Below, in pieces: positions 1,585-63,224 of a stretch of DNA of 64,000 nucleotides. The stretch spans positions 142,042,001 to 142,106,000 of the forward strand of contig CM059425.1 of the NCBI GenBank assembly GCA_030390025.1, in the 5' to 3' direction. The position numbers were made by a program, and so were the translations under genes. Every line of letters begins with the position of its first letter. Positions within the stretch are counted from its first letter, which is position 1. The DNA comes from Squalus acanthias (taxonomy: Eukaryota). A model generated the notes under the pieces. That model was not told the origin of the DNA. It ran no database searches and saw only the letters and a list, made by a program, of their open reading frames with translations.

Positions 1585-1760
1585 CATGGTATCATTATAA
1601 ACCATCTGACAACCCTTTTCTTTGTATGGACCCAACACCAGTTTGCCACAAGAAAATGTCTTCCCATTTAAGCTCTTGCAGATGGCAATGGACCTATTAT
1701 CCTCATACTCTGTCTTTAAGGGATAGAAGAAATCACACGTTTCTGAAGTTTGAACGCAGT
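1585..1760 (-). CDS. CENPC: CENP-C cupin (dimerisation) domain, first exon ([12 protein letters not shown]...[31 protein letters not shown])
   Basis: Acceptor actttcag, donor ATG|gtaagt, phase 1 to 0; matches the FSTGKLILGPxxEKGxQ cupin signature of vertebrate CENP-C. Confidence 0.92.
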
Positions 1761-4700
1761 CTGAAAGTTTTTTAAAAAATCACACGATTAGAAGGTGTGT
1801 GTTACACTTTCACACCAAATTCAAAATGGCCATTGCTGGGCACAAGAATCCAAACATTGACACACTATTCTTGTCTGAGTCTATTAGTTGTACTGTACAT
1901 TTTAATTTATTAATTTAAACATCAATCATCTACTTTCTACTTCCACTCTTTATGGTTTCTCCCATGCACACTACAACTGACAAAAGGCTAAAGCCAAAAG
2001 AAGATGACCAGAGTGAAGAATTGACCAAAGCAATGCAGGTCTTCAATCAACTACCTTGAACATGACAGCAATAACATGCATTCCAAGACCAGAAGTTGAC
2101 TTTCTGAGCAAGACTAAAATAAATGTGTATTTAAAAAAAAAAATTATAAAAACTGGTAACAAGAAACAATGTATTAAAAAGTAAACTATTTTAAACAATT
2201 AATAGAACTTGAAGTTCAGGTCCAGAGGGGTCTATACTGAAGAATACTTAGGAGAGGTTGGTGATGAAATAGCAGCACTAATCAGAAGTTATCAAAATTC
2301 TCTGAAACCAGAAAGTATTACACACGTTCAAAAATGGGGGAAATGATCAGCCAGGTAACTGTACACAAGTTAGGCTCAAGTCAACAGTAGCAAAAATAAT
2401 GAGGGATAACATTAATACTTACAAAAGTATGGGCTAATCCAGGAAAAACAACACAGATTTGAAAAGGCCGTGGCATAGTTGGACTTTCAAAATGTATTTA
2501 ATAAAGCGCCATATAAAACAAACTTGTTGCAAAGATTAAGGCCCATAACATTAAAGTTGAAGTAGCAACAGATAGAGAGATGGCTGAAGGATGGCAAACA
2601 GAGTAGAAATAAATAACTGCTTCTCAGATTGGCAAGATTCAGCTAATGATGTGCCGTGGAGTTGTGTTGGCATCTCTCTTGTTCTCCATATACTTAAATT
2701 AGACATGGATATGGAGGAAATATCAGCATTTGCTGATGACATCAAATAGGAAGAATGGCAAACCGTGAGGACAAATGCAGGACACAGGTTATGGGAATGG
2801 CAAATATAGTTCAATGTTGTATTTTTCCAAATAGATGTAGTCTATTTGGAAAAAACAGAATGGGAATATAACCTAGAAATGAGAGTTTCATGCAAAGGGT
2901 TATTAGAAGATAGAATGCACGACTGCAAGTGGCTATTGAAGCAGAGTCAATCATGACATTTAAGAGATAATATTAAAATGGATGCAGAAGAGCAAAGAAA
3001 TCAGATTAGACTAAGTAGCTCCGATGTGGAGCCAGTACAGGCACATTGAGACAAATGGCTTCTCCTGTGCTGAAATCTCTATAATTTTATCAAGATTAAC
3101 TATTTCCTTGTGCCCTAACGTAATGTACTCCTGCAAATGATAGAAGCAAGAAAAAAAATTTTGGAGGTGCATCTCTGGAACAAAGTCCTATGCACTCAGG
3201 GCTAAGCGAAGGACATGACCAATTATGGGCCCAGTATTTTAATAAAAAATTGCCCCAGTGATTCCCTATTGTTTCAATGATGGTCTATTCGTTTTTGTGT
3301 GGAGATTGAATACATGAACAAGATTAGATAAAAGTGCTTAAGAGTCTATTATATGCAAGTGGAAACTTGGTAAATACTTGCTTCTGTTCATCAGACCTGA
3401 CTGCAATTAGATTAAGAAAATCATAGAAACAAACTCTCCATCAGCCATCGTAGTGCCATTTCCCGCTACTCAAAATACCAAGAAGTGCAAAATGAAGAAC
3501 ATGTTCTTGAATCTACAAATTAGAACTAAAATATTGCACATACTGCTTAGTAGACTTTTTCCAAGGACACTAACCTACAAATATTTCACTGCTTTCCTTT
3601 ACACTCCACACACAGGTAGATTTCAAACTTTTTTGTATAGCTACTTCAGATGGCTCCTTCTCACAGTTATAACCTATTCAAATAATAAAACAGATTGAAG
3701 TTATTAAAAAGTACTTGAATTTGCATAATGTCATTATCACACCACAGTATTTTTGGGTATATTTAATACACTGTTAAAACTGGTAAATAATATTGATTCA
3801 AGGCTAGGATTAATCCACAACTAAAACCAAGGCAGACATTATTCTCCAAATGAAGATCTACTGCATGGGCCACAGATCAACTGGATGAAAGCCACAGAAA
3901 ACAGTGCATCCTTATCCCCTTTTTTAAAAAGCTGCTGGTTTATTTCTGTTTTGAGTACTTGTCAAAATGTAATTTTATCAATGGTTTTAATTAATCATTC
4001 AGGTACAGGGAAAGAAGAGCCAGTTCTGGGATTAAAGGGCATTCAAGTCAGTCAACATCTGATCTGCAAGGTCTAATGTAAAGCAGGGTTTTCTAGGATT
4101 CAAAGACCAGGAACAATTTCTATGTAATTCATGATTTGGTTAATCCAGAATTCAAAATACATTCAGAAAGAATTGACATTAATGAGTTGTCTCTCCTACA
4201 ACATTTTGGATGAAACAATCCCAGTTTTGTACCTTTTTCAGAAAAAAAAATCAGAAGCATTCCCACAAAAAAATGAGGCACTTAATAGAAAAGTTGCCAA
4301 TATGGTAAACATATTTTAACAGGAGTAATAGACTGCCTGCACTATGTAGAAAAAATAAGCACTGCACCTCCAATTCTAAACTGAAGATCCATACTCCAAC
4401 GCCACAAGACATATAGGGGGAGAAATTCAGTATCGCCCCATTTGGGGCGCAATTATCGGCTGGGCGCAAAGATTAGCGCCTGTCGCTAATTATCGCCACC
4501 GACTGCAAACTTGACTTTTATCGCCCCTGGAGGTGATTGCAGCGCTATATCAGGCGCTTCACACCTGTCTTAAGGCACAAAGGCCGAGGAGCGAGGCGCT
4601 ACCTCAGAGCGCTGGCGAAGCTCATGTAATGTCAGTCAGCAATGGAACACACACACAATGGCACAGGCCAGTTCTTAAAGGGGATGGTTAATCTTGCTTT

Positions 4701-16700: not shown

Positions 16701-19700
16701 TTGAAACGTTTTAGCTAGTTTAACCCTTTTCCGACGTGAAGCACGCCTGATGTGAAACACGCCAGTGAAAGCTGGCGGGAGCACAAGTGGATAGCTGACT
16801 ATCAGCTGCAGGTCCACTATTACAACGGAGATGTGATGAAGGTAGTAGTAGTATTAGGTCTGAAAGTCGCCTCTGATGCTGCTGCATTGAATGTCTTCAG
16901 AGACTGCCTGGCCTTTGCTGAGAGAGGACCAGGATGCAAAAAAATTCTCTCTCTCTGAGCTGCTGCTCATTTTGCATCCAGGTCCACTCACAGCAAAGGC
17001 CAGGCAGTCTCTGAAGACCTTCAATGCAGCAGCAATGATGACATCATCAGAGGCGACTTTCAGACTGAAACCACTAATTGGTTCATGGGTTCCCACATGC
17101 TGGAACTCAATTGCCCAATTAGGTGAAAATTGCATCAATCTCCCACATCCAATTGCAGTCGGGTGGATAACACGAAATGCGGATGACACGACCCCAACCC
17201 GCCCCAGTATCAAAATCCAGCCCGAGGTCTCCTTATTCTTCCTATCAAAATGCACCACCTCACACTTGGCTATATTGAAATTCATTTGCCAATTACATGC
17301 CCATTCTGCAAGTTTATTAATGTCCTTAATAAACTTGCAGAATGGACATGTAATTAGCAAATGAATTCAATATAGTGAAGTGTAATTTGTCGCAGTCTTC
17401 CTCAGTACCACCTAATTTGGTGTAGTCCGCAAATTTTGAAACTGTACTTGATTCCAAATCGTTGATGTAAATGGTGAACACTGGTCCCCCAGCACTGATC
17501 TTTGTCGAACACCATTTCCCACCTTTTGCCAGTCTCAGTATTTCGAAGGGCCGAGGTGCACCATCAGAACACAGTCTTATATACAGAAGAGCTGAAGAAA
17601 GACCTTGAATGGCACTAAACCTTTAAATGGACAGTGTCTTAGTGCACTATAGTCCAATAGAAATCGCTAACTAGCTACGACAATACCATTTTAGACACAT
17701 GCAATAATTTTACTGGTGTTACATAACATTTTAGCAAATAACCAATAAGCAGTAACCAAGGAAGTAAAGCACTCAACAATCAAAAATCACTCGCACGCTG
17801 CTTTACATCTTCCCATTTTACCAACAGACATAAAGGTTAAAGTACACATGTATATAGTGTAAATGAGTATGAAGATCACATGACCAACAACGTCTATTGC
17901 TCATTTTTTATTTCGTGATCAGAAATACGATTTTCCACAACTGAATTCCCAATTAGCCATATGTGGCTAATGTATTGGACAACACAGTCTTAGTGGCCCA
18001 CCACACCTTTTCCCTAAATTGAAGGATAGCAATCATTTGTAAATGAGGTGAACTCCAAGTAGATCCTCTCATTAAACCATACCTGATTCATCTGTTTCAT
18101 AATTCACATGTTCTCCCAACAAGTGCTTCACAGGCTTCACTTTGGTTCGTTTTGAACATCGAAAAGGTGTGTGTTTGGAACAGACTATTGACAAAAATAT
18201 ATTACAAGTGATCTTGAGTGTCCCAAACAATGGTTTTCAGTTTTACAAGAGTTACTAGACCCAAACATGTTACAAAAGATGAAAAATTCTGCACACCTAC
18301 ACACTCTTCACAGAAAACCCCAAATGTGAACGAATTCTCAAGTCAGATCAGGACAAGTAGCAGCCTTCTAAATGGCTAATATTTGTTTTTCTTCAACTAT
18401 CCCCTGCTTTATTTAATGCCTGCGTCATAGCAAGTATTTTAAGGCTGATCCTGACATTAAATTGTGATACTAATAGAGAATAACCATTATACAATTGGAT
18501 TTCTTTCCATTGCAGATTATTGAAAGCAAATTACATTGTTTTGTATGAAGATGTTTAATTGCATTCCATCTCATGCATCTTCAGATTGAGCTAGCCAGTT
18601 TCTAAAAAAAAAAATCAGCAAGCTCCGATAGTTAGCTGGTGACTTTTAATAAGTACATCACTGGAGAGATTATTTAATATTGGTCAGAATATTGTCATTA
18701 TTTCATATTGTACCTCAAGAACTTAAGATAACAAGGCACCCACATAGTGAAACCAACCATGGCTAGAGGTTAAAGATAGTATTAGATTAAAAGAGGTTCA
18801 CAAGGTTGCCAAAAATAGTAAGTTTGAGGATTGGGAGGGTTTTAGAAATCATCAAAGGATGACCAAGAAAATGATAGAGGGAGATAATAAAATGAGAGTA
18901 AACTAGCAAGAAATTAGAAACAGATTGCAAGAGCTTCTACAAATATGTAAAAAGGAAGAGATTACCGAAAGTAAACATGGGTCCCTTATAGGCAGACAGG
19001 AAAAATTAAAATGGGGAATAAGGAAATGGCAGAGACATTAAACAAGCATATTGTATCTGTCTTCACAGTAGAAGACACAAAAAAAAGTGGGGACCCGAGG
19101 GTCTAATGAGAGTAAGGAACTTAGTGATTAATATTAGTAAAGAAAAAGAACTGGAAAAATTAACGTGACTAAAAGCCGACAAATCCCTATATCCTAGGGT
19201 TTTAAAAGAGGTGGCTGCAGAGATAGTGGATGCATTGGTTTAGATCTTCCAGAATTCCCTAGATTTTAAAACAGTCCCCCCGTGGATTGAAAAGTAGCAA
19301 ATTTAACCCAGCTATTCAAGAGAGGGAGAGAAAAAACAGGGAACTATAGGCCAGTTGGCCTGAGATCAGTAGTAGGGAAAATGCTACAATTGATCATTAG
19401 GTACGTGGTAACAGGGCATTTAGAAAAATCATAATATGATTAGGCAGAGTCAACACGGTTTTATAAAAGGGAAATCGTGTTTGGCAGATCTATTTGAGAT
19501 TTTTGAGGGTGTAACTAGCAGGGTAGATAAGAAGGATGTAGTACATTTGGATTTTCAAAAGGCATTTGATAAGGTGCCACACAAGAGATTGATACACTAG
19601 ATTATACGGACTTCCAGAAGGCTTCAATAAAGTCCCTCATAAGAGACTGTTAGCTAAAGTTGAAGCTCACGGAATTAAAGGGCAAATTATTGAGCTGGTT

Positions 19701-22700
19701 AGGAAATTGGCTGAGCGGCAGGAAACAGAGAGTAGGGATAATGGGCAGGTCCTTTAATTGGCAGGATTTGACTAGTGGTGTCCCACCGGGATCGGTGTTG
19801 GGGCCTCAACTATTCACTGTATTTATTAACAGGTGACTGGATAGAGAGCCACATATCCAAGTTTGCCAATGACACAAAGATAGGCAGCATTGTAAGCAGT
19901 GTAGATGGAAGCATAAAATTACAAAGAGATATGTGAATGGGCAAAACTGTGGCAAATGGAGGCAAGTGTGAGGTCATCCACTTTGGACCAAAAAAGGATA
20001 GATCAGAGTAAGTTCTAAATGGTGAAAAGCTGGAAGCAGTGGCGGTCCAAAGAAACTTGGGGGTCCATGTATATAGATCAGTAAAATGTCATGGACAGGT
20101 ACAGAAAATAATCAAAAGGGCTAATGGAATTTTCTAAAGGACTAGAATACAAGGGGGTGGAATTCATGCAACAGCTATACAAAGCCCTGGTTAGACCACA
20201 CCTGGAGTACTGTGTTCTGGGCACCCACCTTAGGAAGGATATATTGGCCTTTCAGGAAGTGCAGCGTAGACTTACTAGAATGATACCTGGACTCCAAAGA
20301 TTAAATAATGAGGAGAGATTACACAAACTAGGGCTGTATTTCCTGGAATTTAGAAGATTAAGGGGTGATATTAGATATTAAGGGGAACGGATAGGGTAGA
20401 TAGCGAGAAACTATTTCCGCTGGTTGAGGAGTCTAGGACTGGGGGACATGGCCTAAAAATTAGAGCCAGGCCTTTCGGAGTGAAATTAGGAAATACTTCT
20501 ACACGCAAAGGGTGGTAGAAGTTTAGAACTCCCTTTCACAAACAAGTGGCAGTTGATGCTAGGTCAATTGTTAATTTTAAATCGGAGACTGATAGATTAC
20601 TGTTAACCAAAGGTATTAAGGAATATGGAGTAAAGGCAGGTATATGGCGTCAGCTCACAGATCAGCCATGATCTCACTGAATGGCAGAACAGGCTTGAGG
20701 GGCTAAATGGCCTACTCCTGTTCCTATCCATTTATGGAACATCTTAGCGCAAAAATTTAAGTGCTTCACAGCTCTACAATAATTTACTTTGAAATGCAGT
20801 GATTTTTATGCAAGAAAATACAGCAGCCATTTTGCAGTTAGTTCGATCCCACAAACAAAAATGATGTAAATAATCAACTCATCTGTTTTGGTACTGCTGA
20901 TGAAGAAACTGCATTGATTAGAAAACCAAACAAATCCCTGCTCCTGTTTGAATGGTGCCATGGGATCTTCCAACATTCATGTGAATCATCAGACTGACTC
21001 ATCTAAAAAAAAACAGCACCTTGGACAATGCAGCACTTTCTCAGTATTGCATTCATGTCAGCCTCGATTATGTGGTCAAGTCCTGGAATGGGGCTTAAAC
21101 CCACAGCCTTCTGACTCAGAGGCAAGAGTGCTACCAATTAAGTCAAACTGATAATAGTACCACCAGTAACTCAATGCACTTTTGCTGTTTTATAACCAGT
21201 AAGTGCTTTAAACCTGTGTTGAACTGTCCATTTTCCTCACTGGTACTCTCTTTTGTATAACTGCCATCCTCATTGGCATCACCAAGATCTGGAAGGAGAA
21301 AAAAACAAGCATAAATGGATACATACTGCAGATGTGGTTTTCCTCGTTCTTTGAGAGTAGTTCAACTTCCAATAACAAATCAATGCAATCAGACAAGCTC
21401 CTACTATTTCAACTTGTTGGATACAGTCCCCTGCCAGAGTTTCCACCAGAACCAGAGGCCAACAACTGAGTCAATATTGGAGAGTAGAGGATTTCTTCCT
21501 GCCCCTCTGCTGTCCAACCTGCCGAGGCCGTTTAGATCCAGGGGTGAGACTTTCCATACACCCAGACAAGCCCGCTTTATTTTGACAGGCACATTGGGGG
21601 AATTTTAACAGCAAAAAAATGGCGGGTTTGGGTCGGTGGGAGGTTAAAGTGGTAGAAATCTGAATCCCGACCCCAACCCGCCGATTTACCTTTTTAACCA
21701 GGAGGTGGGTTGACACTTTAAACAGTGGTCCGCGCAGAGTGGTCTTAAACGGAGTGCTTCTAAACAGAGTGTTAAAGTTGGGAATTTGGAGTGTGGCAGA
21801 ATTTGGAGCAGAGGGGGAAAGGAAGTGCTGCTTTTTGCCTTGTAGTGTTTTGTGTTACAAGTAAATATTTAATTTAATCTACCTATAACTTAAACTAGAT
21901 CTAGTAATTAGTTAAAAACTAAACTATAAGCCAAGTAAATTAAATACATAAACTTTAATTAATTAAATAAATAAAACAAGGTTATATAGGGATGGCAGTG
22001 CAGGTGGTGTGCCGCAACTGCGAGTTTGTGGAGAGCATTGCGATCCCGAACGACCGTGTCTGCATCTCAAGGAACTTCAGCTCAGAGATCTTGAGCTGGA
22101 GTCCAAGGTGCAGCCATTGCGGGGCATCAGGAAGGGGGAGGATTACCTGGACACTTCACACCCCTTCGGTTAGGGGTAGTGGTACAGGTCTGGTTAGTGG
22201 TCAGGGACATGAGGGCGTGACCCCAAGTGCAGTGCTGGAGGGGCGCTGGCCTTTGCCATTATCGAACAGGTATGAAGTTCTTGCTGCCTGTGTAGATGAG
22301 GGCAAAGTCTGCAAGGTGGATGAGCAAACTGATGATGGCACCATGGTACATGAGGCCATTCAAGTGGCTGGGGGGGGGGGGGGGGGAGAAGAAGAGTGAA
22401 AAGGAATGTTGTAGTGGTAGGGGACTGTATAGTCAGGGGGATAGATACTGTTCTCTGCAGCTGCGACTGGGAGTTCCGAAGGCTGTGTTGCCTACCCAGT
22501 GCCAGGGTTAAGGATATCTCCTCGTGGCTGGAAAAGAATTTGGCGGGGGGGGGGGGGGGGGGGGAATGGAAAGAGGATCCAGCTGTCGTGGTCCACGCAA
22601 AGCCAATGACATAGGTAGAACTAGTAATGAAGTTCTGCTGAGAGAGTTTGAGGAGCTAGGGTCCAAATTAAAACACAGAACCTCAAAGGTAATAATCCCT

Positions 22701-25700
22701 GGATTGTTACCTGAGCCATGCGCAAATTGACATAGGGACAAGCAGATCAGAGAGAGTTAAATGCCTGGCTCAGAGTGGTGCGCAAGGAAGGATTTTGATT
22801 CCTGGAGCACTGGCACCAGTACTGGGGAAAGAGGGAGCTGTTCCGTTGGGACGTGGTCCACCTCTCAATCTGGCTGGCTACCAAGGGCAGGGGGGAAAAC
22901 AGAGGGAAAAATTTTAATTAGGCCCTGTTAAATTCAGTAGGGCCTGAGGGAAACCCATTCTCCCAGGTTTCCCGACCAATGTTACCCCCAAGGAGCACGG
23001 CCGCGTACTAATCAGGAGGTCCCACACAGGCCACTGGAGGACACCGCGCATACACGGCTGCGCAGCAAATTTAAAGGGACCGCATACTTAAAGTGACCAC
23101 AAATTAGAGGGATCATTGTTCCCCCTACCTGCCTCCAAGTTAAAATCCTGCCCATTGGATCTACTGGCTTCAAATACATTTCCTATCTGACCTGGACACA
23201 AGTTTAGAGAAGGAATCCAAGATCACTGTTCCATGGAAGAACTATTACATGCTGGCCTTCTTGTGAAGATGATCACACTTCTGAAAGTCATGTGACTTTG
23301 GAAAACAATACAAACAGATTTCAATTCTGTCAATCACTGGGAAAAATCTGTTATATTCAACTTTTAAAACTGGAAGCTGTCATTGACCAAAAGTGGATGA
23401 GCCCAGCAAAACCACAGCCACTGATACAGGCAGCAGCAAACAACATGGAGGTGCAATTAAGTATTGGCCAAGGAAACCACCGTTGACAACTTTGGAAAAA
23501 GGAAACTTCTCCAAAAAAAAAATGAACTTTCAAAAAGACTTAATGGGGCTGAGCCGTACAGAACAGTAGATCCCAGGTCTGATTCATAGTTTATACAGAG
23601 TTATTTATCTATTAGGGTGGTAGTAGGAATCACTACAACGGTCTCTGCTCCACCAGCCAACAAGGAAAAGGACAGACAGACAGGCTTTCCACTCCCGATT
23701 GCTATCTGGTGATCCCTGCTGGAAAGTGCACTTGAGTGAACATCAGATGAGTCAGGTTCAGCTGTGATGACCCTTTCCTTCCACAAAAAAGATTGAGCAA
23801 TCTACCAATAATGACTTCCTATACTCACACACAAAGAATTATCATTTGGGTAAGAGAGCAAAGGGCTAGAAGAGGGAGAGATCACTTAACCAAAATGATA
23901 ACATAATGGCAAGAATTTCTTTGAAAGAATGTTCTTCGGCTACTTCTCACATTTAAACTAAACCATATTTTCTGCAGCAGTTTTACTCATACCCATCATT
24001 TCTTCGTGATCAAAGTTTCCATTGTCACCTGTATCTGAAGACTCCTCTTCATAACTCGCACTTGGCCCCGGCCCACTCCTATTAAAAACAGGCCTAAAAA
24101 TAAAAAAAACTCAAATTGGAAATTATGAGCAGACTACAAATAGTTTTTATGTTGGAATGTTAAGCAGTACATGTGTAAAAATTGTAGCTCAGAAGCACTA
24201 TAGATCAATATTCACCAGTTCTCAGGATATTTTTCCATTGCTGATTAATTGCTAGATAATATTCACAAGCAGAATGATTGAAGATTCCGATTAAAGCACA
24301 TTCATTACAAGTCCTTGAACAAGTTTGCCTACTTACACAGCACCGCAGGGAAGTCCTTGCTTTAAAGTTCTCTTTCTTTGCACAGAAGTGCTGGGCTCTG
24401 GTTCGGCATCCTCCTCACTCTCATCCGGTGTCGGTTCACAATGCTGAGAAGGGACAGTTTTATCTTGGTATTTCAGAGTGTCATAATTTCTGGGGCTCAT
24501 TACAACCCGATTTGGAGGACTTGAGGATACCTGGGTATTTGCACAAAGTTGATCAGCAGGTTTGGTGATAGACTTTCTGGGGCTCATTACAACCTGACTT
24601 GGAGTCCCCGAGGACACCTTGCCAATTGCAGGAAGTCTGTCAGCAGGTTTTTGTACAGTCTTTTTGCCAACATAAGCTGCACCAAAGGATGCTGAAGATT
24701 CTCGAAAGGGTTTTTGTGATGTTGGCTTGCATGATAAAGAAGAGATATAGTCCTTAGTTTCCCTTGAAGTTGTACAAACATGTGCAGGTCTTGAAATGGG
24801 ACTGTACTCCTCCTCTTCCATTTCATTTTTATTGTGCACATCAGAATTATGCACCTTCTGCTTCAGTATAGATTTTTGTTTTTTGGTCAGGTGCATGTCA
24901 GAGGGTTTTGCCTTTTCTTCTTCAGCCTCAGAAAACAATCGCTTTTTTGGTATGGATGGCGCCAAAGAATACTTTTGTTTTCTACTTTGCTTCTTAACTG
25001 ATACCCTACCAGAATGATTGTCCTGTTGATTAGCTGTCCTCTGCTGCCCTGTGGGTTTTGACTGGCTGTGTGGTGGACTACCCGGAGAACAATCATTTTC
25101 AAAAACATCCTCCTCAAAAGTTTGCTCGTCTGAACTACACACTTCAGTCTCCAAAGGCTTTGTTTGAGCACATGCAGCTCTTCTTTTCAAAACCATCTGC
25201 TTTTTCTTCATTTGTGATCTCAAAGACTTAGCCTTTGTCATCCTGTCTTGTAAATTGGCATTCAGTGCTGGCAAATAATCTGTCTTCAATCTCTTTTGCA
25301 GATGGTTGTCAGCATGTTGTACCACCCACCACTTTGGTGGCGGTCTGGTACGACGTTGGGGCCTCGTATATACATCCAAAGCATTACCTTGGAGATGATT
25401 CTCATCAAGTTCCCAGGGAGAAGGGGAGCACTTCTTAGAATCGCCAGGTTTCTTCGGTCGAGTTTCCTTCTTTGACATTTCTTTCTCTTTTACTGAAATA
25501 AAAAGGCAATATTCAATCAAAGCAACTTTGAAAAGAAAGAGCTTGCCTTTATATAGCTCCTTTCATCATCTTAGGATGTCCTAAAATGCTTTACAGATAA
25601 TGAAGTACTTTTGAGACGTAGTCACTATTGAAAAGTAGGCAAACGCGGCAGCCAATTTGTGCACAGCAAGGTCCCACAAATGGCAATAAGATAACGGCCA

Positions 25701-31700: not shown

Positions 31701-34700
31701 TTAGCTCAAACCCCAATGTGGGACTCCAACCCACAATCCTCTGGGTCAGATGCAAAAGTGCTACAACTGGGCAAAGCTGACATGATATGCACTTAATTTT
31801 TTCCCTTCTGCTTAAATCCATATCATTCCTTATATGCAAGTTGATTATTGAACTCTTGCTTTGAGCTGGATGTGGTTAGAGAAAAGAAAAGCAGCAAAGT
31901 GAGGGAGATATTTATTTAAAACAGGAGGTTCCCAAACTGGGGGGAGGGTGATGGTTAATGGGGGGCATGAGGAGAATGGGCTGGCTCACAGCATCAATCA
32001 GAAGAACGTGCTACTGGAGGAGGCAGAACTGGTGGACATTGATGCTTTGCTCTTAGCGTAGAGGAAAATACAGAGGAAAGAGCAAAAATGAGAGAATGCA
32101 GCAGTAATGTGCAGAGTACAGGAAATGTAGGGGCCTGGAGAGAATAACCTTAACAGTTGCTGTTATTTGCAATGCTCATTTGCTCAATGGGTGCTCGCAG
32201 CCCACATCCTGCACCACTGGAGGTAATTCAATTCTGGAGTTCAAATGTCAAGGAATAAGCTCACCAGTACTAAATGCCTCCCTGAAATCAAACCCTGCAC
32301 TCAATATTATTCATTACACCTCATGTGTAAACCAAAGAACACAAATGTTTACTTTTCCCATAAGCAGTACTGCTACAGTACAGATTATACTGCAAGTTTG
32401 GTAAATGCACCTCATACAAAAGGCTGCCATGTTAATGTCCTTCATGAATGATTGTCACAGAGCAAGGTTTGTTCATGGCAAAAAAGGCTCAATGGGCCAA
32501 ATGGCATACTCCCATTCATAGAAACTTAATTGACTGGGCTTGGTGAACCAGATACTGCTGTAACAACTTACATTTACATTGTGCCTTTAATGAGAAAAAC
32601 ATCCCAAGGCACTTCAGATAGGCATACTGAAAACAGATACCGGGCCAGGAAAGGCTAAGATTTCATTTGAACGTGCCCTGAATATACACCTTCTTCCCTA
32701 AAACATGCATATTTACAATCCTTTCTCCAGATATAAGATTTAGCGACAGTATTTACATACATTTAGATTTTTTTTTTGAAGTAATTGTACACAGCTTGCA
32801 GGAGGGTACTCTGAGTACAAGCAATGTGCATGATGAAACAAAATCTGACTAGAATCTGAAATATAGGAAGCATGACTGTTCTCTTCCTCACATTACGCTC
32901 TTGTTGAAAATTCAAGATATTCACTAATCATTATGGATTCAGAGTAGCCACTTAACATCAACTTACTGGCAATTAATATGTAGAACAGTAACTCTACTGA
33001 TGTTGGCTGTGGTGACTGGCAAAATCTCAGCAGCAAAGTATTGGATCACAATATCTGTATTTTAATTTTAAACATATAAATAAACAGGATATCCAAAATA
33101 CTGGAAAAACTGAAAGAGTCAAATGAAAAAAAGTTACCTGTTGGTTTCTGTTTCTGTTGTTTCTTTGCTCTCTTTTTGCTTTGAGTTCCCGGTTTTGCAA
33201 ATAAAGTTAGCTTTGATTTCTTTTCATCACTATGTAGCCCCCCGGGCAAATTTACTGAACTTTCAGATTCTGGGAGCTTCTTCGAAGTAATCATACCCTG
33301 CTCAGACAGTCTGGACTTTTCAGTTCTGTTTCTGTTTTCCTCAACACAGAAATGTGGTTCCTGGTGTAATTCCTCTCGCTGTTCTTGTAATTCCCCCTGC
33401 TCTTCAGCTCCGTCAAATTCAACTATAGATTTGTCCCTTGGTGGTCTTAGTTTTAATTCTCCTAATTTTTTTTGTTTGGGAGACAAATGTTTAGAGTGGG
33501 ATAAAGATTCATTTCGTATTTCCTGTTGCTCTCTCTCAGTATTGGCAACAGTTTTATCATTTTTCAACAGACATGCAGATCTTTTCCCAGATTCCTTTGG
33601 TTGATTTTCATTTTTTTTGTTTTTCTTGTTCTGAGCTAACTGTTTTTCATCATTGTTCTTTTTTGATTGAATGGCAACTTCTTTTCTTGTTGCATCTGTC
33701 TTCTGCCTTTTTTCTTTCTTTTTCGTTTCCTTTGCATCAGAGACAGATTTCTTTTCCTGTTCAGTTGGATCCTGGTTTGGTACCATGGCTTTCTTCGGTA
33801 TTGTAATCCATGATTCAAAACAGAAGCTCTCCTCTTCTTCCAATTCAAACTCAAACTCACGGTTAGGTGCTGAAGTAATGGGAATAACTTGTTTTGGTTG
33901 TGGTAATGCAGAAACAGCTGGCCTGTGAAGACATTTTTTTTTTAAGTTATCAATTTCTACTCTAGTCTGGAGAGTATTGTTGGTATTAAGCCTAATCAAA
34001 TGTGTAATAGTGGCCAGTAATGTTGGGAATATGATAACATGCTCTCTTACTATCCATTTTAAAATTGTCGTAAGAATATTTTTTTTTATGTTAACCGAAT
34101 CAATTTATGCAAAAAGTCAATTACATTGGCAGGTTAGGTGCTCAAGAGCCTCATATTGCCAAACTAAAGTATTGTTCATTTGTTATGTTCACCTCGCTCA
34201 ATTGGGACAGGCATTACTGGAGAAGCTGCAGTGAGAAAGCTGAAGTCTGCATTTAAAGGTGAGCTGCTTTAAAATCTCTTTCCAGTTTCTAGATTTTTGC
34301 ACATTATAGGAACTGGTACCGAACTTAGCAACAGAACCATCAAATGCTGGAAAAGGCTATCAAGTACACAAGGCACAGTATTAAATCCCACCACTACACT
34401 ACTGTAGCAGGGAGTTATCTGGTAATGGCAATAGGGGTGTGTCTAAGCTTTAACAGGGAAGCAGTGACAAGAGCTGTGCAATCCCCTTTCAGAAAACCTC
34501 TAGACAATATGCAACATCTGCATGGCAGTGACACTGCCCAACATCAGCATGGGCCTTGTTTTTTATGCACCAAGCTCTCTCCTGGCTAGCAGAGGACATT
34601 TGCAGTGTTAGCTGCATCAAGGTGGTGACAGATGCATAATTTAACAGACAATGACATCACCACTGTTGCCTCTGACCAACATCAAATAACACAAGAAGGC

Positions 34701-37700: not shown

Positions 37701-40700
37701 CAAATGCAAAACTGAAGTAACAAAGTTCTGACCACTTAACATAATGGGCTTGTTACAACTGTCGTGAAATAATTTTTGAGAGCCTTAACTGAAGATTTTT
37801 TTTAAAGTTTCCTCTCCACAATATTTCCTTTGCGACTTTTCCATAATCATGCTAATCGAGAGAGATTCCAACGCCATATAGCCTCTAATATAGAAAAAGT
37901 TCCATGGCACATCTAGTGAAAAATAGTTTTGGTCTTCAAAACTCAAACATACTGCTTTAGCAAAAAGAGCCTGCACAGGGGCAGTGAGCCAAATGGCTTC
38001 CTTCTGTGTTGTAAACATTTGGTTCTATGCTTGGGAAATTATTGCTGTGACTAATCCTTGAGATCAGACCTTAAATCCTTTTTAAAAAGTCCTATTAAGA
38101 AATCATAATCATAACATTCCTATAAAGAAGGTATCAAGACTTACTTTATCCCAAATCTGTAAAATGACGACTTAGGAAACACAGATGCTTGTTCTTTCTT
38201 CTGTTTTTCAAGTCCGGAGGTGGACGGGACAACATTCTCAGTTGGATACCTATTTTGTTTATTATCCACACATGTGCTGTTCACGACTGCCGGTGTTTCA
38301 CTTACATTCAAACTTGGTCTGCAACAGAGTTATTGAGAACTTAGCAGTGACAACACAAAAGAAAAATCTAGGATTTAAGAGGCAAGGAGAGTTTTTAATG
38401 AGTAACCTGTAAAAGGAAGCACATTTCTTGAACTATAATTTATCAAGTAGAAGTTGCTGCAGCTTTCTGCAGAAATTTGATAAATCAACAGTATCCTATA
38501 TTTATATAGCGCCTTTAATGTACTAAAATATCCCAAGGCACTTCACAGGAGTGCTATCAAAAAAATAAATTGACACCAAGCTATAAAAGGAGATGTTAGG
38601 GCAGATGACCAAAAGCTTGGTCGAAGAGGTAGGTTTTAAGGAGCGTCTTAAAAGGAGGAAAGTGAAGAGGCGGAGAGATTTAGGGAGGGAGTTCCAGAGC
38701 TTAGGACCTAGGCAGCTGAAGGCACCACCGCCAATGGTGGAGCATTTAAAATCAGGGACGTTCAAAAGGCCAGAATAGGCAGAGCGCAGAGGTCTAGGGG
38801 GATTATACGGCTGGAGGAGATTACACAGATGTAAGATGGGGCAAGGCCATGGAGGGATTTGAAAACAATGATGAGAATTTTAAAATTGAGGCGTTGCTTA
38901 ACTGGGAGCCAATATAGATCAGCAAGCACAGGGGAGATGGGTGAGCAGGACTTGGTACAAGTTAGCACACGGGTGGCAGAGTTTTGGATGACCTCAAGTT
39001 TATGGAGGGTAGAACTACGGAGGCCGGCCAGGAGTGCATTGGAATAGTCAAGTCTAGAGGTGATAAAGGCATGGATGAAGGTTTCAGCAGCAGATAAGTT
39101 GAGGTAAGGGCGGAGACGGGCGATATTACGAAGATGTAATGGGCAGTCTTGGTGATAGAACGGATGAGAAGTAGGAAGCTCAATACATGATCATATGATG
39201 TCAAGGTTGCGAACAGACTTGGTCAGCCTTAGAGAGTTGCCGGGGAGAGAGATCAAATCAATGGAAAGGGAATGGAGTTTGTGGCATGAACCGAAGACAA
39301 TGTTTCAGTCTTCCCAATATTTAATTGGAGGAAATTTCTACTCATCTAATGCTGGATGTCGGACAAGCAATCTGATAGTATAGAGACGGTGGAGGGTTCA
39401 AGAGAGGTAGAGCTGGGTATCATCAGAGTACTTGTGAAAACTCATGTTGTGTTGTTAGATGATGTCACCGAGGGGGAGCATGTAGCTGAGAAATATGAGG
39501 GGGCCAAGGACAGATCCTTGGGGGACACCAGAGGTGACAGTGCGGGATCGGGAAGAGAAGCCATTGCTGGTGATTCTATGGTTACAGCTGGAAAGATAGG
39601 AACTAAACCAGGCGAGTGCAGTCCCATCCAGCTGAACAACAGTGGAGAGGCGTTGGAGCAGAATTTTGTGGTCAACCACGTCAAAGGTTGCAGACAGGGC
39701 CAGAAGGACGAGAAATGATAGATTACCTTTGTCGCAGTCAATTAGGATGTCATTTGTAACCTTAGTAAGAGCAGTTTCAGTACTGTGGCAGGGACGGAAG
39801 CCTAATTGGAGGGATTCAAACAAGGAGTTCTGGGAAAGATGGGCACAGATTTGGGAGGTGACAACACGTTCAAGAACTTTGGAGAGGAAAGAGAGGTTGG
39901 AGATGGTGCAAGGGTTTGCAAGGATAGAGGGTCAAGGGTTTTTTTTTTTTGAGAGGGGTGCTGACGGCAGATTTGAAGGAAAGGGGGAAAATACCGGAGG
40001 AGAGACACCGTTAACAACATCCACTAACATGGGAGCCAGGCAGGAAAGTTGGGTTGTCAGCAATTTAGTAGGAATAGGGTCGAGAGAGCAGGTCGGTCAG
40101 TCTCATTGACCAGATGAGCTTTGAAAGTGCAAGAGGGGAGACAGGAGAGAAATGAGAAATATGCAAATTTAGGGTTAAGGCAGGGGGAAAACAGAGAGGA
40201 AGCAAGGTCCAGTGAGCTAGGGGAAGGGAGGGAATTGAAAGCAGAAGCAGTTGAACGGATGTTGTCAATCTTTTTAACAAAGAAGTCTGTGAGCTCCTCA
40301 CATTTATTGTTGGAGGTGAGGGAGGAGGAAGGAGAGGGTGGTTTGAGAAGATGGTTAGTTGTGGATAATCGGGGGGCAGTACTGTGTGGCGGGGGCAGGT
40401 TGGTAGAGGACCTTTGTCTTACTGTGAAGAGAAGCCTGGTGTTATTTTTGCCATCAGCTAATGATTATCAAGTATACAAGTGTACAACAGTGCCCCAACT
40501 GTAACAGTCAACGTGTTAAATTTCATAGAATCATACAGCACAGAAAGAGGCCTTTCAGCCCCTTGTGCTTCTGCCAGCTCTTTGAAAGAGCTATCTTATT
40601 GGTCCCATTTCCTTGCCCTTTCCCCATAGTCCTGCAAATGATTTGTGCTTTTCAAGTATATATCCAATTCCTTTTTGAAAGTTACTTGTGAATCTTCTGC

Positions 40701-49700: not shown

Positions 49701-52700
49701 CCCTGGTGAGACCACACCTGGAGTATTGTGTACAGTTTTGGTCTCCTTACCGAAGGAAGGATATACTTGCCATAGAGGGAGTGCAACGAAGGTTCACCAG
49801 ACTGATTCCTGGGATGGGGGGATTGTCCTATGAGAAGAGATTGAGTAGACTAGGCCTATATTCTCTAGAGTTTAGAAGAATGAGAGGTGATCTCATTGAA
49901 ACATACAAAATTCTTGCAGAGCTTAACTGGTAGATGCAGGGAGGATGTTTCCCCTGGCTGGGGAGTCTAGAACCAGGGGTCACAGTCTCAGAATAAGGGG
50001 TCAGCCATTTAGGACTGAGATGAGGAGAAATTTCTTCACTCAGAGGGTGGTGAATCTTTGGAATTCTCTACCCCAGAGGGCTGTGGAGGCTCAGTCGTGG
50101 AGTATATTCAAGACAAAGATCGATAGATTTTTGGATATTAAGGGAATCAAGGGATATGGGGATAGTGCAGGAAAGTGGAGTTGAGGTAGAAGTTCAGCCA
50201 TGATCTTATTGAATGGCGGAGCAGGCTCGAGGGGCCAAATGGCCTACTCCTGCTCCTATTTCTTATATTTGCTTGCAGTATTGAACAACCAACTGCGAGC
50301 AGAGATCTCTTGTGCAAGGATTCTGCCTTTGCTCATTGCAATGTTGTCCAAGACCTACAGTTTGCAGGGCCAGTGAGATGTCTGTCTGTGTGCCTTGGAA
50401 TGTTTTACTACGTTAAAGGCGCTATATAAATACAAGTTGTTGTTGTGCTCTCATCTATTAAATTAAAGATTCAGGGAAACAAGAAATGCATACTAAAACT
50501 TTTGCTTGTAGGAGACAACCCCCTCCAGGCTGACATGCCCTCTATCCTCAACCACTAATATAGGACCTAGTGTTAGTTCAGAAAGGAGCGCAGATCTATT
50601 TCCTGAAAATGTTCCAAGTTACTTACAGTGCAGCTTCCACTTGTGAGGGTGAACGGAGATGAGAGAGCGTCTGCAGCTATGTTGTCTACCCTGAGCGAAA
50701 GAGTAATCTTATGACTCAGTCAGTTTCATAGTAGCAGGATTGCATCCTGACAAAGGAAGCAGAGGGAAGTTCCTCCTCCATTATTGATCTAGAGGACCAT
50801 CGTGTTCTCACCATACATTCTACTGTGCTCAGGAAGTGTTCCAGAACTTACCTAATTGCCCTTAATTCCAGTTTAATTGTTGTGTGAACTGGACTGCTCT
50901 ATTGACTGGATTTGTGCTCGCTGACCTACATTGGCTCCCGATCCACCAACGCCTCAATTTTAAACTTAGTGGTCAAATCCCTCCAACCCCTTGCTATCTC
51001 GGTAACCTCCTTCAGCCCTACAACCCTCAGAGAACTCTGTGTTCTTCCAACTCTGGCCTCTTGTGCATCTCCCACTTCCTTCACCCCACCATTAGCGGCC
51101 ATGCCTTCTTCCGTCTAGGCCCTAAGCTATGGAAGTTCCTTCGTCTCTTCACCTCTCCCTCCTCCTTTAAGAAGTTACTTAAAACCTACCTTTTTGACCA
51201 ATTGTTTGCTCACCTGTTCTAATGTCTACTTCTTTGGCTCAGCATCAATGTTTGTCTGATTGCACTCCTGTGAAGCACCTTGGGATGTTTTACTACATTA
51301 AAGACGCTATATAAATACAAGTTGTTGTTTTCAAAACGGTGGCCTCAATTTTAACCCTCATCGCCCAGCGAAAATGGCACGTGGGGAATGGTTAAATTTA
51401 AGCTAAGTCGACTTACTGGCCTGAGCTCGCTCTGCATGCCAGAACTCGCTGTCTGGGCTTACACATCAAGAAAAGCCACTTGTGTGAGATAGCAGAAGGC
51501 TGCCAGCACTTGTAGAACCATGCATCAACAATAGTTAGCTCACCTTTGAGAGGGAAGCTGGAAGAAACCAAAAAAGAAAGCCTATATTGAGTTTACTTGT
51601 TGTGCCTGACTAGCTTTCGTACCCTTTTGAATTAATTCTTTGTGGAAGTCTTGAAAGAGTTTGAGATGCATTCACAACATTTGCTTCCTTGTTCTTCCCA
51701 CTCAACAGGCTGCTTCTTGGTTTGTGTGTTTCTAACCCAACTAGTTTGTCATTTTCATCATCATCTGCTATGGTCTCAGTCAATGGCACAGGTACGAGAT
51801 CCACACATTTAGTTAAACTGTAATGATCTGTAATGAAAGAAGGACAGATAATGAGATTATGTAGTCTCTGTAAAACTATTATCAACAAAGTGCTCTGAAT
51901 AAACCTTTTTTTTTTTAAAAAGTCAGTTTCCACATTAAACTGCAGGATAAGCAACAGGAAGGACACTGTTTGAACTAACATATGAGCCACATTGTTCAAG
52001 TGGTCCTTCCTCAACCCTTTCATAAAGACTGCCATCTGGAAATGTACATTAGTTCTTTTGAAAGCAAATTATTACAACAAGGAACCAGCTAACCACCAGT
52101 AATTCTGGCCAATGATGTGCCCTTTCATGAGCCTTAACTAAAGATGAATACTGGGAGGTAAGAGCAGAATAGAAATGTGGTAGTGATAGGGGATTCTATA
52201 ATTAGGGGGATAAATAGCGTCCTCTGCAGCCAAGAATGAGAATCCCAAAGGTTGTGTCGCCTACCCGGTGCCAGGGTAAGCGCTAACTCGTGGCGGCTGG
52301 AGAGGAATTTGGAAAAGGCGAGGGGGCGGGGGTAAATCCAGTTGTCGTGATCCATGTCGGAACAAACTATTAAAGAAAGGAGGGAGACAGAAAGCAGGAA
52401 ACTATAGGCCAGTTAGCCTAACATCTGTCATTTGGAAAATGCTGGAATCCATTATTAAGGAAGTAGTAGCAAGACATTTAGAAAATCATAATGCAATCAA
52501 GCAGAGTCAACATGGTTTTATGAAAGGGAAATCGTGTTTGACAAATTTATTAGAGTTCTTTGAGGATGTAACAAGCAGGGTGGATAAAGGGGAACTAGTA
52601 GAGATAGTGTATTTGGATTTCCAAAAAGCATGCGATAAGGTGCTGCATAAAAGGTTACTGCACAAGAGCTCATGGTGTTGGGGGCAATACATTAGCATGG

Positions 52701-61700: not shown

Positions 61701-63224
61701 ATGAATGGAGATCACCCCAAAAACACTAAAACATTAAATACATTTTTTAAAAACCATCACATTTTTTAAATGAGTTGGAATTACAATAACATTTAAACAA
61801 AAATTTAATTTTTTGAAAAAAAGAATTAAAGTTATTTACTGGGCTAAAAATAAACTTACCTTTTTTTTTAAAAAAAAAAGTATTTTTAAATGATAAATGA
61901 GTGAAATTTTTTTTTTTTTACTTTTTTCAACTCTTAAAGCAGGCCTTACAAATTTCTAAGGGTTTTCTGCGGGCGCAGGTTCTCCAGAAAGCGGAACTAT
62001 CCGCCCGCAGAGGCCCTTCTCTAGGGCAGGCGACGGATCTGTCAAGAGCATTCTTGACAGATCGGAAATGCCAGTTTTCAAGCGCATGCGCTGTACATGC
62101 CTGAAACCGGCATTTCCGATGTCCCTACGGGTGTGTACACAGCTCGTATACACCCGTAGGCATCGGAATATATGGCCCAATGTTTGTGCAAGTTATTTTC
62201 TCTCTATATAACATGAACAGGTGTTTGTGTACTCAAACTTCAGAATGCTTGGGCCAGATGAGGCACCCGCTACTAATCAAGCTGGTTCACTGATGAGGTG
62301 AGTGAGCACACAGCGGCTTGAGTTTTAAAACAGCCAAAGGCTCACAGTAAAGTAATTCTGATCAGGTCAGCACACATACTGTACACGAATCACTTCTATG
62401 CAGGAGATAACCAGCATTAATCAGATGCTGTTTTAGAGTACATATAAAATGATTTACCTGATAACATTGGTCCTTTAACCACTTCCTTTTTGTTTGGAGT
62501 TTCAGGTTCTGCGTACAAATTTTTTTTAGGTGTTTTTCTGTTACTTGCTACTGCTTTGGGCAAACTGACCGAACTACCAGATTCTGCAGAGTTCTTACAA
62601 TTTACTGCACCCTGCTCAGATACTTTGGACTTTTCCATTCCGTTTGCTTTTTCTGCAACACATAAAAGTGTTTTTTCTAGGAATGCCTCACATTCATCTC
62701 TGTTGCTCTCAATTGCAGCACATTTTTTTCCTGATTTTCTATGTCCTAATTTTGTTTTTTGTTTGGGAGTCAAAGATAGTTTAGAGGCGGATGAAGGTTC
62801 ATTTTGTAATTCTTCCTGCTCTTCCTCTGCATTATTCTTCAAGAGATGTAAAGCAGACCTTTTGCCAACTTCTTCTGGTTTAGTTAGTTTGTTCAGTTTG
62901 GAAGCTTTTTTGCCCTCTAGCTGTTTAGGAAGGGACAAGGGCTCACTTAGTAATCTCTCTAGTTTTTCATCTGTGGCAGCAACTTCTTTTCTTGCTGTTT
63001 TCTGGTGGTTTTCTTTCTTTTTTACTTCCTTTATGTTCGAGACAGATTTCTTTTCTTGCTCATCTGGTTTCTGGCTTAATACTTGGGTCTTCCTCGGTAT
63101 AGTAATCCGTGACTCAAAACTGAAGTTCTCCTCTTCCATCAATTCAAACGCAAAGTCATTACACTTGGGTGCTGAAATACTAGGCACAACTTGGGCTGGT
63201 GGCGGCAATGCAGAAACAGCTGGT
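1585..63224 (-). CDS. CENPC: Centromere protein C, multi-exon gene, partial at both ends (about 1200 codons in window)
   Basis: Motifs occur in the expected order on the minus strand: [12 protein letters not shown]-binding motif, central motif [17 protein letters not shown]-motif-like exon, cupin-domain exon. The ten exons have GT-AG ends and compatible phases, total 3601 nt and give one open frame. Confidence 0.92.
2200..3080 (+). mobile_element. Old degenerate CR1 fragment
   Basis: Remnant DFQN.F.K.P and FADD motifs and a CR1-like 3' end. Confidence 0.65.
4416..5307. mobile_element. Harbinger/PIF-type MITE, family 1
   Basis: TIR GGGGGAGAAATTCAGT / ACTGAATTTTTCCCCC, 3-bp TSD ATA, GC-rich; second copy near 12120-12910. 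Confidence 0.8.
7035..7455 (+). mobile_element. Harbinger DDE transposase 3' fragment (HARBI1-like), decayed
   Basis: [20 protein letters not shown]...[15 protein letters not shown] motifs. Confidence 0.9.
7600..9560 (-). mobile_element. Harbinger Myb/SANT-like partner gene, spliced and frameshifted
   Basis: APRFSD..EALVEE..RREVL, WEQIA and [13 protein letters not shown] motifs; convergent with the transposase. Confidence 0.85.
9690..12115 (+). mobile_element. LINE ORF2 (endonuclease C-terminal part plus RT), CR1/L2-group lineage distinct from the other CR1 copies
   Basis: [47 protein letters not shown]; stops and frameshifts. Confidence 0.9.
12120..12910. mobile_element. MITE family 1, second copy with left TIR truncated
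   Basis: Colinear with 4435-5307 and ends in ATCTCCCCCCC-ATA. Confidence 0.75.
13290..13858 (+). mobile_element. L2 LINE 3' fragment
   Basis: SKLDYSN-like motif and ggtgctatataaatgca tail; homologous to the 38500-39200 element. Confidence 0.75.
14267..14326 (-). CDS. CENPC: Candidate CENP-C exon ([20 protein letters not shown])
   Basis: Resembles GGFVISGVLSP, which follows the CENP-C motif; donor CAG|gtataa; the acceptor is an unusual GAG; phase 1 to 1. Confidence 0.5.
14590..14747 (+). pseudogene. H3: Histone H3 3' fragment with histone stem-loop and HDE
   Basis: [30 protein letters not shown] (14593-14685), GGCTCTTTTAAGAGCC (14707-14722) followed by ACCA, and AGAGCTG (14741-14747). Confidence 0.92.
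15982..17540 (-). mobile_element. CR1 3' fragment with internal deletions, interrupted by a MITE
   Basis: WQMNFN..KCEVVHF and [10 protein letters not shown] motifs. Confidence 0.85.
16496..17223. mobile_element. MITE family 3 (TIR GGGCTGGAT), copy 1, with long internal palindrome
   Basis: GGGCTGGAT...ATCCAGCCC termini; near-identical to 52922-53530. Confidence 0.85.
18083..18184 (-). CDS. CENPC: CENP-C motif exon, degenerate ([34 protein letters not shown])
   Basis: Acceptor ttttgtcaatag, donor CAG|gtatgg, phase 1 to 1; aligns without gaps to RRTKRTRLKPLEYWRGERIDY. Confidence 0.88.
18750..20730 (+). mobile_element. CR1 ORF2 3' portion, apparently a chimera of two subfamilies
   Basis: RT motifs, RPHLEYC and a CR1 tail; the DFQKAF.KVPH block is repeated near 19545-19650. 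Confidence 0.88.
20740..21150 (-). repeat. SINE-like repeat
   Basis: Homologous to 25530-25920 and 31220-31780; tRNA-like head remnant at the right end. Confidence 0.55.
21214..21288 (-). CDS. CENPC: CENP-C exon ([25 protein letters not shown])
   Basis: Strong acceptor ttttttctccttccag, donor CAG|gtttaa, phase 1 to 1, 75 nt. Confidence 0.72.
21596..23153. mobile_element. Harbinger-type MITE split by a CR1 5' segment
   Basis: Imperfect TIR GGGGGAATTTTAAC / GTTAAAATCCTGCCC with ATT on both flanks. Confidence 0.6.
21720..22880 (+). mobile_element. CR1 5'UTR plus ORF1 (zinc-finger remnant and SGNH esterase), decayed
   Basis: [32 protein letters not shown] and GLLPEP motifs. Confidence 0.85.
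23993..24093 (-). CDS. CENPC: CENP-C exon ([19 protein letters not shown]...EEMM)
   Basis: Acceptor ttttatttttag, donor G|gtatga, phase 2 to 1, 101 nt. Confidence 0.85.
24337..25492 (-). CDS. CENPC: CENP-C large exon with central CENP-A nucleosome-binding motif ([17 protein letters not shown])
   Basis: Acceptor tttttatttcag, donor GT|gtaagt, phase 1 to 2, 1156 nt open; motif comparable to human RRISRRPSDWWVV. Confidence 0.92.
24487..24660 (-). repeat. Coding tandem repeat, 2 x 87 bp (29 aa)
   Basis: tttctggggctcattacaacc at 24487 and 24574; KPADxL...VSS...VVMSPR twice. Confidence 0.9.
25530..25920 (-). repeat. SINE with L2-like tail
   Basis: cttgcctttatatagc tail and homology to the other SINE copies. 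Confidence 0.6.
25922..28025 (-). mobile_element. CR1 ORF2 3' portion, interrupted by a MITE
   Basis: [24 protein letters not shown] and FFTQRVV motifs. Confidence 0.9.
26731..27469. mobile_element. MITE family 2 (TIR GGGCCAGAAATTC), copy 1
   Basis: Perfect 13-bp TIR, flanks AAT/ATT, inserted in CR1; AT-rich core. Confidence 0.88.
28163..28871. mobile_element. Harbinger-type MITE, family 4
   Basis: Imperfect TIR GGCCTGTAATTTGTGGT / ACCGCAAAATCCAGGCT, flanks ATT/AAT. Confidence 0.6.
31456..31625. repeat. Fold-back palindromic repeat inserted in a SINE
   Basis: aaataaaaacagaaaatgctggaaatac ... gtatttccagcattttctgtttttattt. Confidence 0.75.
33138..33922 (-). CDS. CENPC: CENP-C exon, CCAN-binding module copy B (PAVSALPQP...[23 protein letters not shown]...)
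   Basis: Acceptor cttcacag, donor CAG|gtaact, phase 2 to 1, 785 nt open; motif resembles human EDEFIIDE..SWITIPRK. Confidence 0.9.
35410..36910 (+). mobile_element. CR1 ORF2 3' portion, decayed
   Basis: RT motifs and a CR1 3' end. Confidence 0.88.
38145..38318 (-). CDS. CENPC: CENP-C exon ([12 protein letters not shown]...[12 protein letters not shown])
   Basis: Acceptor ctctgttgcag, donor AA|gtaagt, phase 2 to 2, 174 nt open; joins in frame to 33922. Confidence 0.8.
38490..40450 (-). mobile_element. L2 LINE RT and 3' end
   Basis: [47 protein letters not shown]; ggcgctatataaat tail. Confidence 0.9.
40520..41090 (-). mobile_element. CR1 3' fragment
   Basis: [14 protein letters not shown] motif and ttctatga tail. 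Confidence 0.85.
42009..42743. mobile_element. MITE family 2, copy 2
   Basis: TIR GGGCCAGAAATTC / GAATTTCTGCCCC, exact TSD ATT. Confidence 0.88.
42933..45915 (-). mobile_element. Long CR1 (ORF1 esterase, endonuclease, RT, tail) with internal deletions
   Basis: [31 protein letters not shown] and RT motifs. Confidence 0.9.
46080..46236 (-). CDS. Candidate additional or alternative CENP-C exon ([21 protein letters not shown]...ELLRQLLW)
   Basis: Good acceptor ttttctgcttcag and open frame; donor uncertain (GG|gtacag, phase 1 to 2); cannot directly follow exon 51623-51827 in frame. Confidence 0.45.
47837..47963. mobile_element. 127-bp hAT-type MITE
   Basis: TIR CAATGTTCCCTTTAA / TTAAAGGGAACATTG with exact 8-bp TSD GTTGTAAC (47829-47836 and 47964-47971). 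Confidence 0.9.
48828..50268 (+). mobile_element. CR1 ORF2 3' half, young subfamily
   Basis: Long open RT stretches ([24 protein letters not shown]); close to 59695-60620. Confidence 0.92.
50910..51330 (+). mobile_element. L2 3' fragment
   Basis: LADLHWLPI and PKLW motifs; gctatataaatacaagttgttgtt tail. Confidence 0.8.
51623..51827 (-). CDS. CENPC: CENP-C exon ([13 protein letters not shown]...LPQRINSK)
   Basis: Acceptor ttctttcattacag, donor GG|gtacga (modest), phase 1 to 2, non-repeat open frame that fits the preceding exon. Confidence 0.65.
52922..53530. mobile_element. MITE family 3, copy 2
   Basis: TIR GGGCTGGATTTT / AAAATCCAGCCC, TSD AAA. Confidence 0.88.
53701..54398 (+). mobile_element. 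CR1 3' fragment of a different subfamily nested in the nested CR1
   Basis: Has its own (TTTCTATG)2 tail; the host resumes at 54399 with the same RT segment. Confidence 0.85.
55346..56397 (-). mobile_element. Nested antisense CR1 3' fragment
   Basis: aagaacat-repeat tail at the left end; AKFADD and RPHLEHC motifs. Confidence 0.9.
59695..60620 (+). mobile_element. CR1 3' fragment, young subfamily
   Basis: Highly similar to 49355-50268. Confidence 0.9.
61476..62178. mobile_element. MITE family 2, divergent copy 3
   Basis: Imperfect TIR GGCCCGTATTTTCCG / CGGAATATATGGCCC, TSD AAT; shares GATCACGTGGGCCATGG and the AT-rich core. Confidence 0.78.
62458..63224 (-). CDS. CENPC: CENP-C exon, CCAN-binding module copy A (PAVSALPPP...[20 protein letters not shown]...)
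   Basis: Acceptor ttcctttcacag, donor CAG|gtaaat, phase 2 to 1, 767 nt open; paralogous to exon 33138-33922. Confidence 0.88.

Follow-up and report, generated by a model that had tools for sequence, protein, structure and literature searches.

The CENPC gene in the window

The window, i.e. the whole 64,000-nucleotide stretch of Squalus acanthias DNA that was analysed, carries on its reverse strand most of a CENPC gene, of which tblastn located ten collinear exons from position 63224 to position 1585. In the direction of transcription, an acidic exon (62458..63224) is followed by two exons placed by tblastn and the exon model (51623..51827 and 38145..38318), a second acidic exon (33138..33922), a large exon with the central motif (24337..25492; about 78-79% identity to Heptranchias), two linker exons (23993..24093, with SGPGP, and 21214..21288), a degenerate CENP-C-motif exon (18083..18184), a pre-cupin exon (3575..3673) and the first cupin exon (1585..1760; 88-91% identity to four other sharks). 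This ten-exon model is stop-free and gives a protein of 1213 aa with the motif exon and 1179 aa without it. Neither the first ~260 residues nor the final cupin exons found a match within the window, so that the gene extends past both window ends.

The central motif, RxxxxPxxWW, is located at 25326..25355 (reverse strand), with its anchor arginine, proline and WW at canonical spacing. It is the sole match, at 25355, to R-x4-P-x2-[YWF][YWF] in the six frames of the window, and the human central domain can be aligned with its Heptranchias counterpart.

When the large exon was used as a query, 15 elasmobranch CENP-C proteins were retrieved, with Heptranchias at 78% and Pristiophorus at 74% as the best. 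A quick IQ-TREE tree of 18 rows, midpoint-rooted, without P0006, P0019 and P0021 and with P0020 as a long branch of uncertain place, follows the expected shark and ray groups; it puts the window gene as sister to Pristiophorus (SH-aLRT 99) with a short end branch of 0.066, which identifies it as the orthologous squalomorph-shark CENPC. At the domain level, the Heptranchias ortholog passes the cut-off of the CENP-C cupin family PF11699 (67 vs. 29 bits). The isolated cupin exon of the window, with the last cupin exons lying beyond it, had no Pfam match, and seven isolated window ORFs gave no CENP-C family match, the single chance match having an E value of 0.24. Cupin identity, collinear exons and the tree together assign the gene to the CENP-C / Mif2 family.

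Concerning the two acidic exons (63224-62458 and 33922-33138, reverse strand), they appear as copies of a duplicated exon, with about 43-46% cross-identity by tblastn. Both bear F-E-x-E...S-F-x-F-E-S-[W/R]-I-T-I-P, aligning to human CENP-C ~277-350, the tryptophan being retained in the second copy and missing in the first. We take this segment to have a CCAN-binding role. With a strict regular expression, by which Chiloscyllium was missed entirely, 7 of the 17 elasmobranch proteins show two copies and P0020 a single one.

The linker exon upstream of the motif exon (21288-21214) has two in-phase donors, CCA|GTGAGG after 21241 and CAG|GTTTAA after 21214. Protein ends suggest that Heptranchias joins the motif exon from the first donor, and that Pristiophorus skips it using the second. 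No counterpart of the short exon that comes next in Heptranchias and Pristiophorus (SNIVQ/STIDQ type; its alignment is downstream of the tetrapod motif) turned up between 21200 and 3700, the best window score being 15 vs. 34 between the two species.

The introns are filled with LINE reverse-transcriptase fragments, at 10498-12361 (forward strand) and at many other sites, with an RVT_1 match at 10498-11160 (E 1.8e-11). An intronic ORF at 9557-9108 (reverse strand) resembles the Myb/SANT-like domain PF13873 below the cut-off (E 7e-4), and may derive from a Harbinger-type transposon.

State of the CENP-C-motif exon

The motif exon is a 102-bp in-frame cassette of phase 1-1 with a stop-free frame, flanked by the acceptor ...caatag|TC and the donor TCAG|gtatgg. 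These splice sites (7/9 donor consensus positions and 10/17 acceptor pyrimidines) are within the range of those of the other nine exons. Its identity was assessed by several searches. tblastn with Heptranchias CENP-C matches it with an E value of 7.6e-7, collinear with the flanking exons, and with the 21-aa canonical motif of a bird (P0019) the score at 18161 is 51, against 27 at the next-best site in the six frames of the window; in 200 order-2 Markov resamples of the window sequence, the score was never above 42 (mean 28). Against the PDB, the exon peptide, which is disordered and 33 aa long, had two matches only, both weak and both to CENP-C motif chains (7bxt_K, E 0.39; 4x23_V, E 0.84). 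By sequence, the exon is thus recognised as the ortholog of the tetrapod CENP-C-motif exon.

The original prediction, made from the letters alone, was that this exon has lost the invariant YW of the motif, now HL, and kept the arginine anchor, P, GE, the final Y and the upstream TP. The codons bear this out: H is CAC (18125-18123) and L is TTG (18122-18120), each one base from TAC or TGG, so that the exon does not carry the full canonical CENP-C motif. The anchor arginine (CGA, 18147..18149), which aligns to human R742 as counted from the 7xhn_C alignment via Heptranchias, is retained, as are P, GE, the final Y and the Thr-Pro (18165..18170) that aligns with the CDK1 site of chicken (T651) and human (T734). 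No intact motif lies towards the cupin exon, as had been claimed: a [YWF]W-x-GE pattern is absent from all six window frames, and no second DNA copy of the motif exon was found in the window either. One correction is that the loss is not limited to YW. On the pattern RxxRxxxxPLxYWxGERxxY (Kral 2016), half of the ten invariants are replaced (R>C, L>V, Y>H, W>L, R>H), i.e. two arginines and a leucine in addition to YW, and 5/10 are kept, compared with 8/10 in Heptranchias and 10/10 in the bird control (P0019). The alignment to human, described as gapless, is free of gaps only from the arginines on; one codon is missing, relative to chicken and Heptranchias, between these and TP, the TP to motif distance being one residue less than in chicken. 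As for the bounds given, 18083-18184 is indeed bordered by AG and GT, and the reading frame begins at 18182 and not at 18184.

Decay and constraint were compared between the window and Heptranchias. Over the 20-aa core, the two differ at five positions, four of them 'invariant' (Fisher p 0.30), which gives no sign of protection at the invariant positions; the non-invariant core positions are identical at 9 out of 10. The whole exon is identical at 23/33 residues vs. 879/1113 in the eight other non-cupin exons (p 0.14), and both tests are nonsignificant in either direction. The two carriers replaced YW differently, by HL in the window and by YR in Heptranchias, and they share a run of ten consecutive residues. 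The five lost invariants and the lost codon of the window copy look like decay, and two of the changes, R>C (TGT) and R>H (CAT), would fit CpG decay. The open frame, ordinary splice sites, in-frame deletion, TP, anchor arginine and ten-residue run are compatible with some remaining constraint. HL is best seen as one among several decay changes, in preference to a targeted two-residue switch or a new specificity.

Distribution among sharks, rays and other vertebrates

Seventeen named CENP-C proteins from 16 elasmobranch species, with one predicted protein per 90% cluster, were compared with the window. Two further searches extended this sample: one among shorter proteins had a single match, the bird CENP-C (P0019) that served as the canonical control, and one among 50% representatives had four, of which two were already known, P0020 was used and P0021 (E 4.6e-4 over a 25-residue match) was not. 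P0020 (1104 aa), placed outside the elasmobranchs in the midpoint-rooted tree, is possibly from a chimaera. Some of these orthologs are hidden under unrelated names, such as 'uro-adherence factor A-like' (P0002) and 'axoneme-associated protein mst101(2)-like' (P0018).

The central RxxxxPxxWW occurs once per protein in all 17 named elasmobranch proteins and in P0020, whereas an intact YW CENP-C motif is present in none of the 18, and no chondrichthyan CENP-C with YW was returned by the protein searches. P0020 carries the central motif only. The motif exon itself is missing from 16 of the 17 elasmobranch proteins, the sole carrier being isoform X2 of Heptranchias perlo (P0002), in which Y is kept and W is replaced by R. 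Best ungapped exon scores were 14-27 in the 16 non-carriers vs. 74 in Heptranchias and 45 in the bird. These absences concern predicted proteins, so the exon may persist unspliced in those genomes, while its presence in the window is genomic.

By our own reading of part 1 of the Kral 2016 supplement (PMC4830207), YW is kept in all 25 coelacanth and tetrapod rows, from which YW is likely the ancestral state. Motif loss thus appears common to the sampled cartilaginous fishes, and not an oddity of one lineage. The original prediction had restricted the reading of CENP-A through the central region alone to the lineage at hand: the intact central motif, seen at 25355-25326 and in 18/18 relatives, and the 0/18 count for YW agree with such a reading, and the restriction to one lineage does not stand.

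Reading of CENP-A and comparison with known systems

Published work bears directly on what the two motifs can do. In human RPE-1 cells, either CENP-C motif alone suffices and the deletion of both is not tolerated, with the central domain binding preferentially in vitro, according to the available part of the source (PMC6891089); CENP-A retention requires the central domain and not the CENP-C motif (PMC5472775). In chicken KNL2, mutating the equivalent aromatic pair abolishes binding, and the central WW docks at the same CENP-A tail site (PMC10015371). A chicken mini-CENP-C made of the CCAN-binding region and the cupin is enough in DT40 cells, as stated in the accessible portion of a preprint (bioRxiv 10.1101/2022.08.17.504347). 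In the elephant shark, a 'CENP-C motif' site without tryptophans has been described together with the proposal that a single motif may suffice, and M18BP1/KNL2 retains the CENP-C motif in non-mammals (Kral 2016, PMC4830207). Given that human RPE-1 cells are rescued by one motif or the other, a CENP-C that reads CENP-A by its central motif only is less surprising than the original prediction held.

Chondrichthyan CENP-C probably reads CENP-A through the central motif, the motif exon being a fading, skippable vestige. The central motif would grip the CENP-A nucleosome, with its arginine on the H2A/H2B acidic patch and its WW on the CENP-A tail, and by homology the protein would also act via its CCAN-binding region and cupin dimer. 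The C-terminal CENP-C motif would have turned redundant in cartilaginous fishes and the symmetrical 102-bp exon would, as a result, now be a vestige, missing from most protein models of sharks and rays, and eroding though still recognisable in the window and in Heptranchias. Judging from the human and chicken data, the HL remnant most likely does not bind CENP-A, and the central motif would do this work. Relaxed selection on the exon and its low or optional inclusion would be expected. We favour a dispensable, skippable vestige, the present data being compatible with a neutral relic and with weak constraint alike.

An unlikely alternative is that the remnant is still spliced and selected as a generic, CDK-site-bearing basic peptide, attaching to the H2A/H2B acidic patch or to DNA with no specificity for CENP-A. 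The features kept in both carriers (anchor arginine, TP, P, GE, Y), the 9/10 identical non-invariant core positions, the in-frame deletion with normal splice sites, and the fact that an NCBI-named Heptranchias isoform contains the exon would all suit such a peptide. However, the exon is dispensed with in 16/17 elasmobranch models, including isoform X2 of the nearest relative, two further arginines are lost in the window, and overall exon identity is no higher than linker level. Somewhat less likely still is a more elaborate form, in which selection maintains an expressed, alternatively spliced squalomorph cassette that acts as a generic nucleosome clamp switched in mitosis: it would have shed CENP-A specificity independently here (TGG>TTG) and in Heptranchias (W>R), kept its CDK site and arginine anchor, and been lost on separate occasions from galeomorphs, batoids and the chimaera-like outgroup.

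A further reading, quite improbable, takes this locus for a specialised or decaying paralog and supposes that a canonical CENPC with YW lies at another place in the genome. The only hint of a relaxed copy comes from the cupin exon, where three residues (at 1740, 1665 and 1596, reverse strand) are found in none of the 17 relatives: M>T and K>N at otherwise invariant positions, and G at a variable W/S/M/C site. The sequence comparison of the genome was also limited to the 64-kb window. Against this stand the species-like tree with its short end branch, the ten stop-free exons and the lack of any chondrichthyan YW CENP-C in the protein searches, and the specialised paralog put forward in the original prediction is consequently unsupported. 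Compensatory co-evolution, in which HL (or YR) would have remained a specific reader of an altered shark CENP-A tail, would agree with the partly retained motif scaffold, but is very improbable: the central WW docks at that tail site too (PMC10015371) and is unchanged in 18/18 proteins, the replacements differ between the carriers and the exon is absent from most models. An assembly or sequencing error masking an intact YW is barely credible despite both codons being one base from TAC or TGG, for two separate errors would be needed, these would still leave the other three invariant changes and the 3-bp deletion, and W is also missing in the independent genome of Heptranchias.

Within the literature covered on fish and shark CENP-C and CENP-A, which includes few subscription papers, Kral 2016 alone deals with chondrichthyan CENP-C, and no publication on a vestigial orthologous CENP-C exon in squalomorphs was found. 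That paper already put forward the core idea, for the elephant shark, and the gain here is one of breadth and detail and not a new mechanism: the window feature adds another example, in more detail, of a pattern noted in a cartilaginous fish and predicted by known redundancy. What seems new, and modestly so, is an orthologous exon caught decaying, along with the breadth over sharks and rays. If the central-motif reading is true, cartilaginous fishes would be a whole vertebrate clade on the central motif alone, a mirror of birds and a natural counterpart to deleting the CENP-C motif in human cells, and whole animals could do without the 'yeast-to-human invariant' motif and its CDK1 switch. The vestigial exon helps to date the motif loss and suggests that the central motif is older than the split from bony vertebrates; it also raises the question of how M18BP1/KNL2 and an unregulated central motif share the CENP-A nucleosome.

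Among known systems, the putative CENP-C of the elephant shark (Callorhinchus milii; Kral 2016) likewise has no canonical motif tryptophans. The site in that study was chosen from an alignment with teleost sequences and may be something other than the orthologous exon, whereas the window exon, with its TP, R, P, GE and Y, is identifiable as the ortholog of the tetrapod motif exon. Heptranchias X2 resembles the window in having the same exon at the same place, W lost and the central motif intact; it differs in keeping Y and 8/10 invariants, compared with 5/10, HL and one codon less in the window. Putative teleost CENP-C (Kral 2016) is also devoid of the canonical YWxGERxxY and relies on RxxxxPxxWW, of which teleosts have two regions, as opposed to one in each of the 18 chondrichthyan-type proteins. 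Human CENP-C (7xhn_C; central domain 426-537, CENP-C motif 736-758) shares with the window gene the order of acidic CCAN-binding region, central motif, motif exon position and cupin, but both of its motifs are intact and redundant, while the window gene has the central one only. Finally, chicken CENP-C (7bxt, 7by0) likewise has one functional CENP-A-binding motif, which in the window gene is predicted from sequence, and, in the portion of the chicken source available, it is the mirror image of the window gene: the CDK1-regulated CENP-C motif is kept and the central domain is absent.
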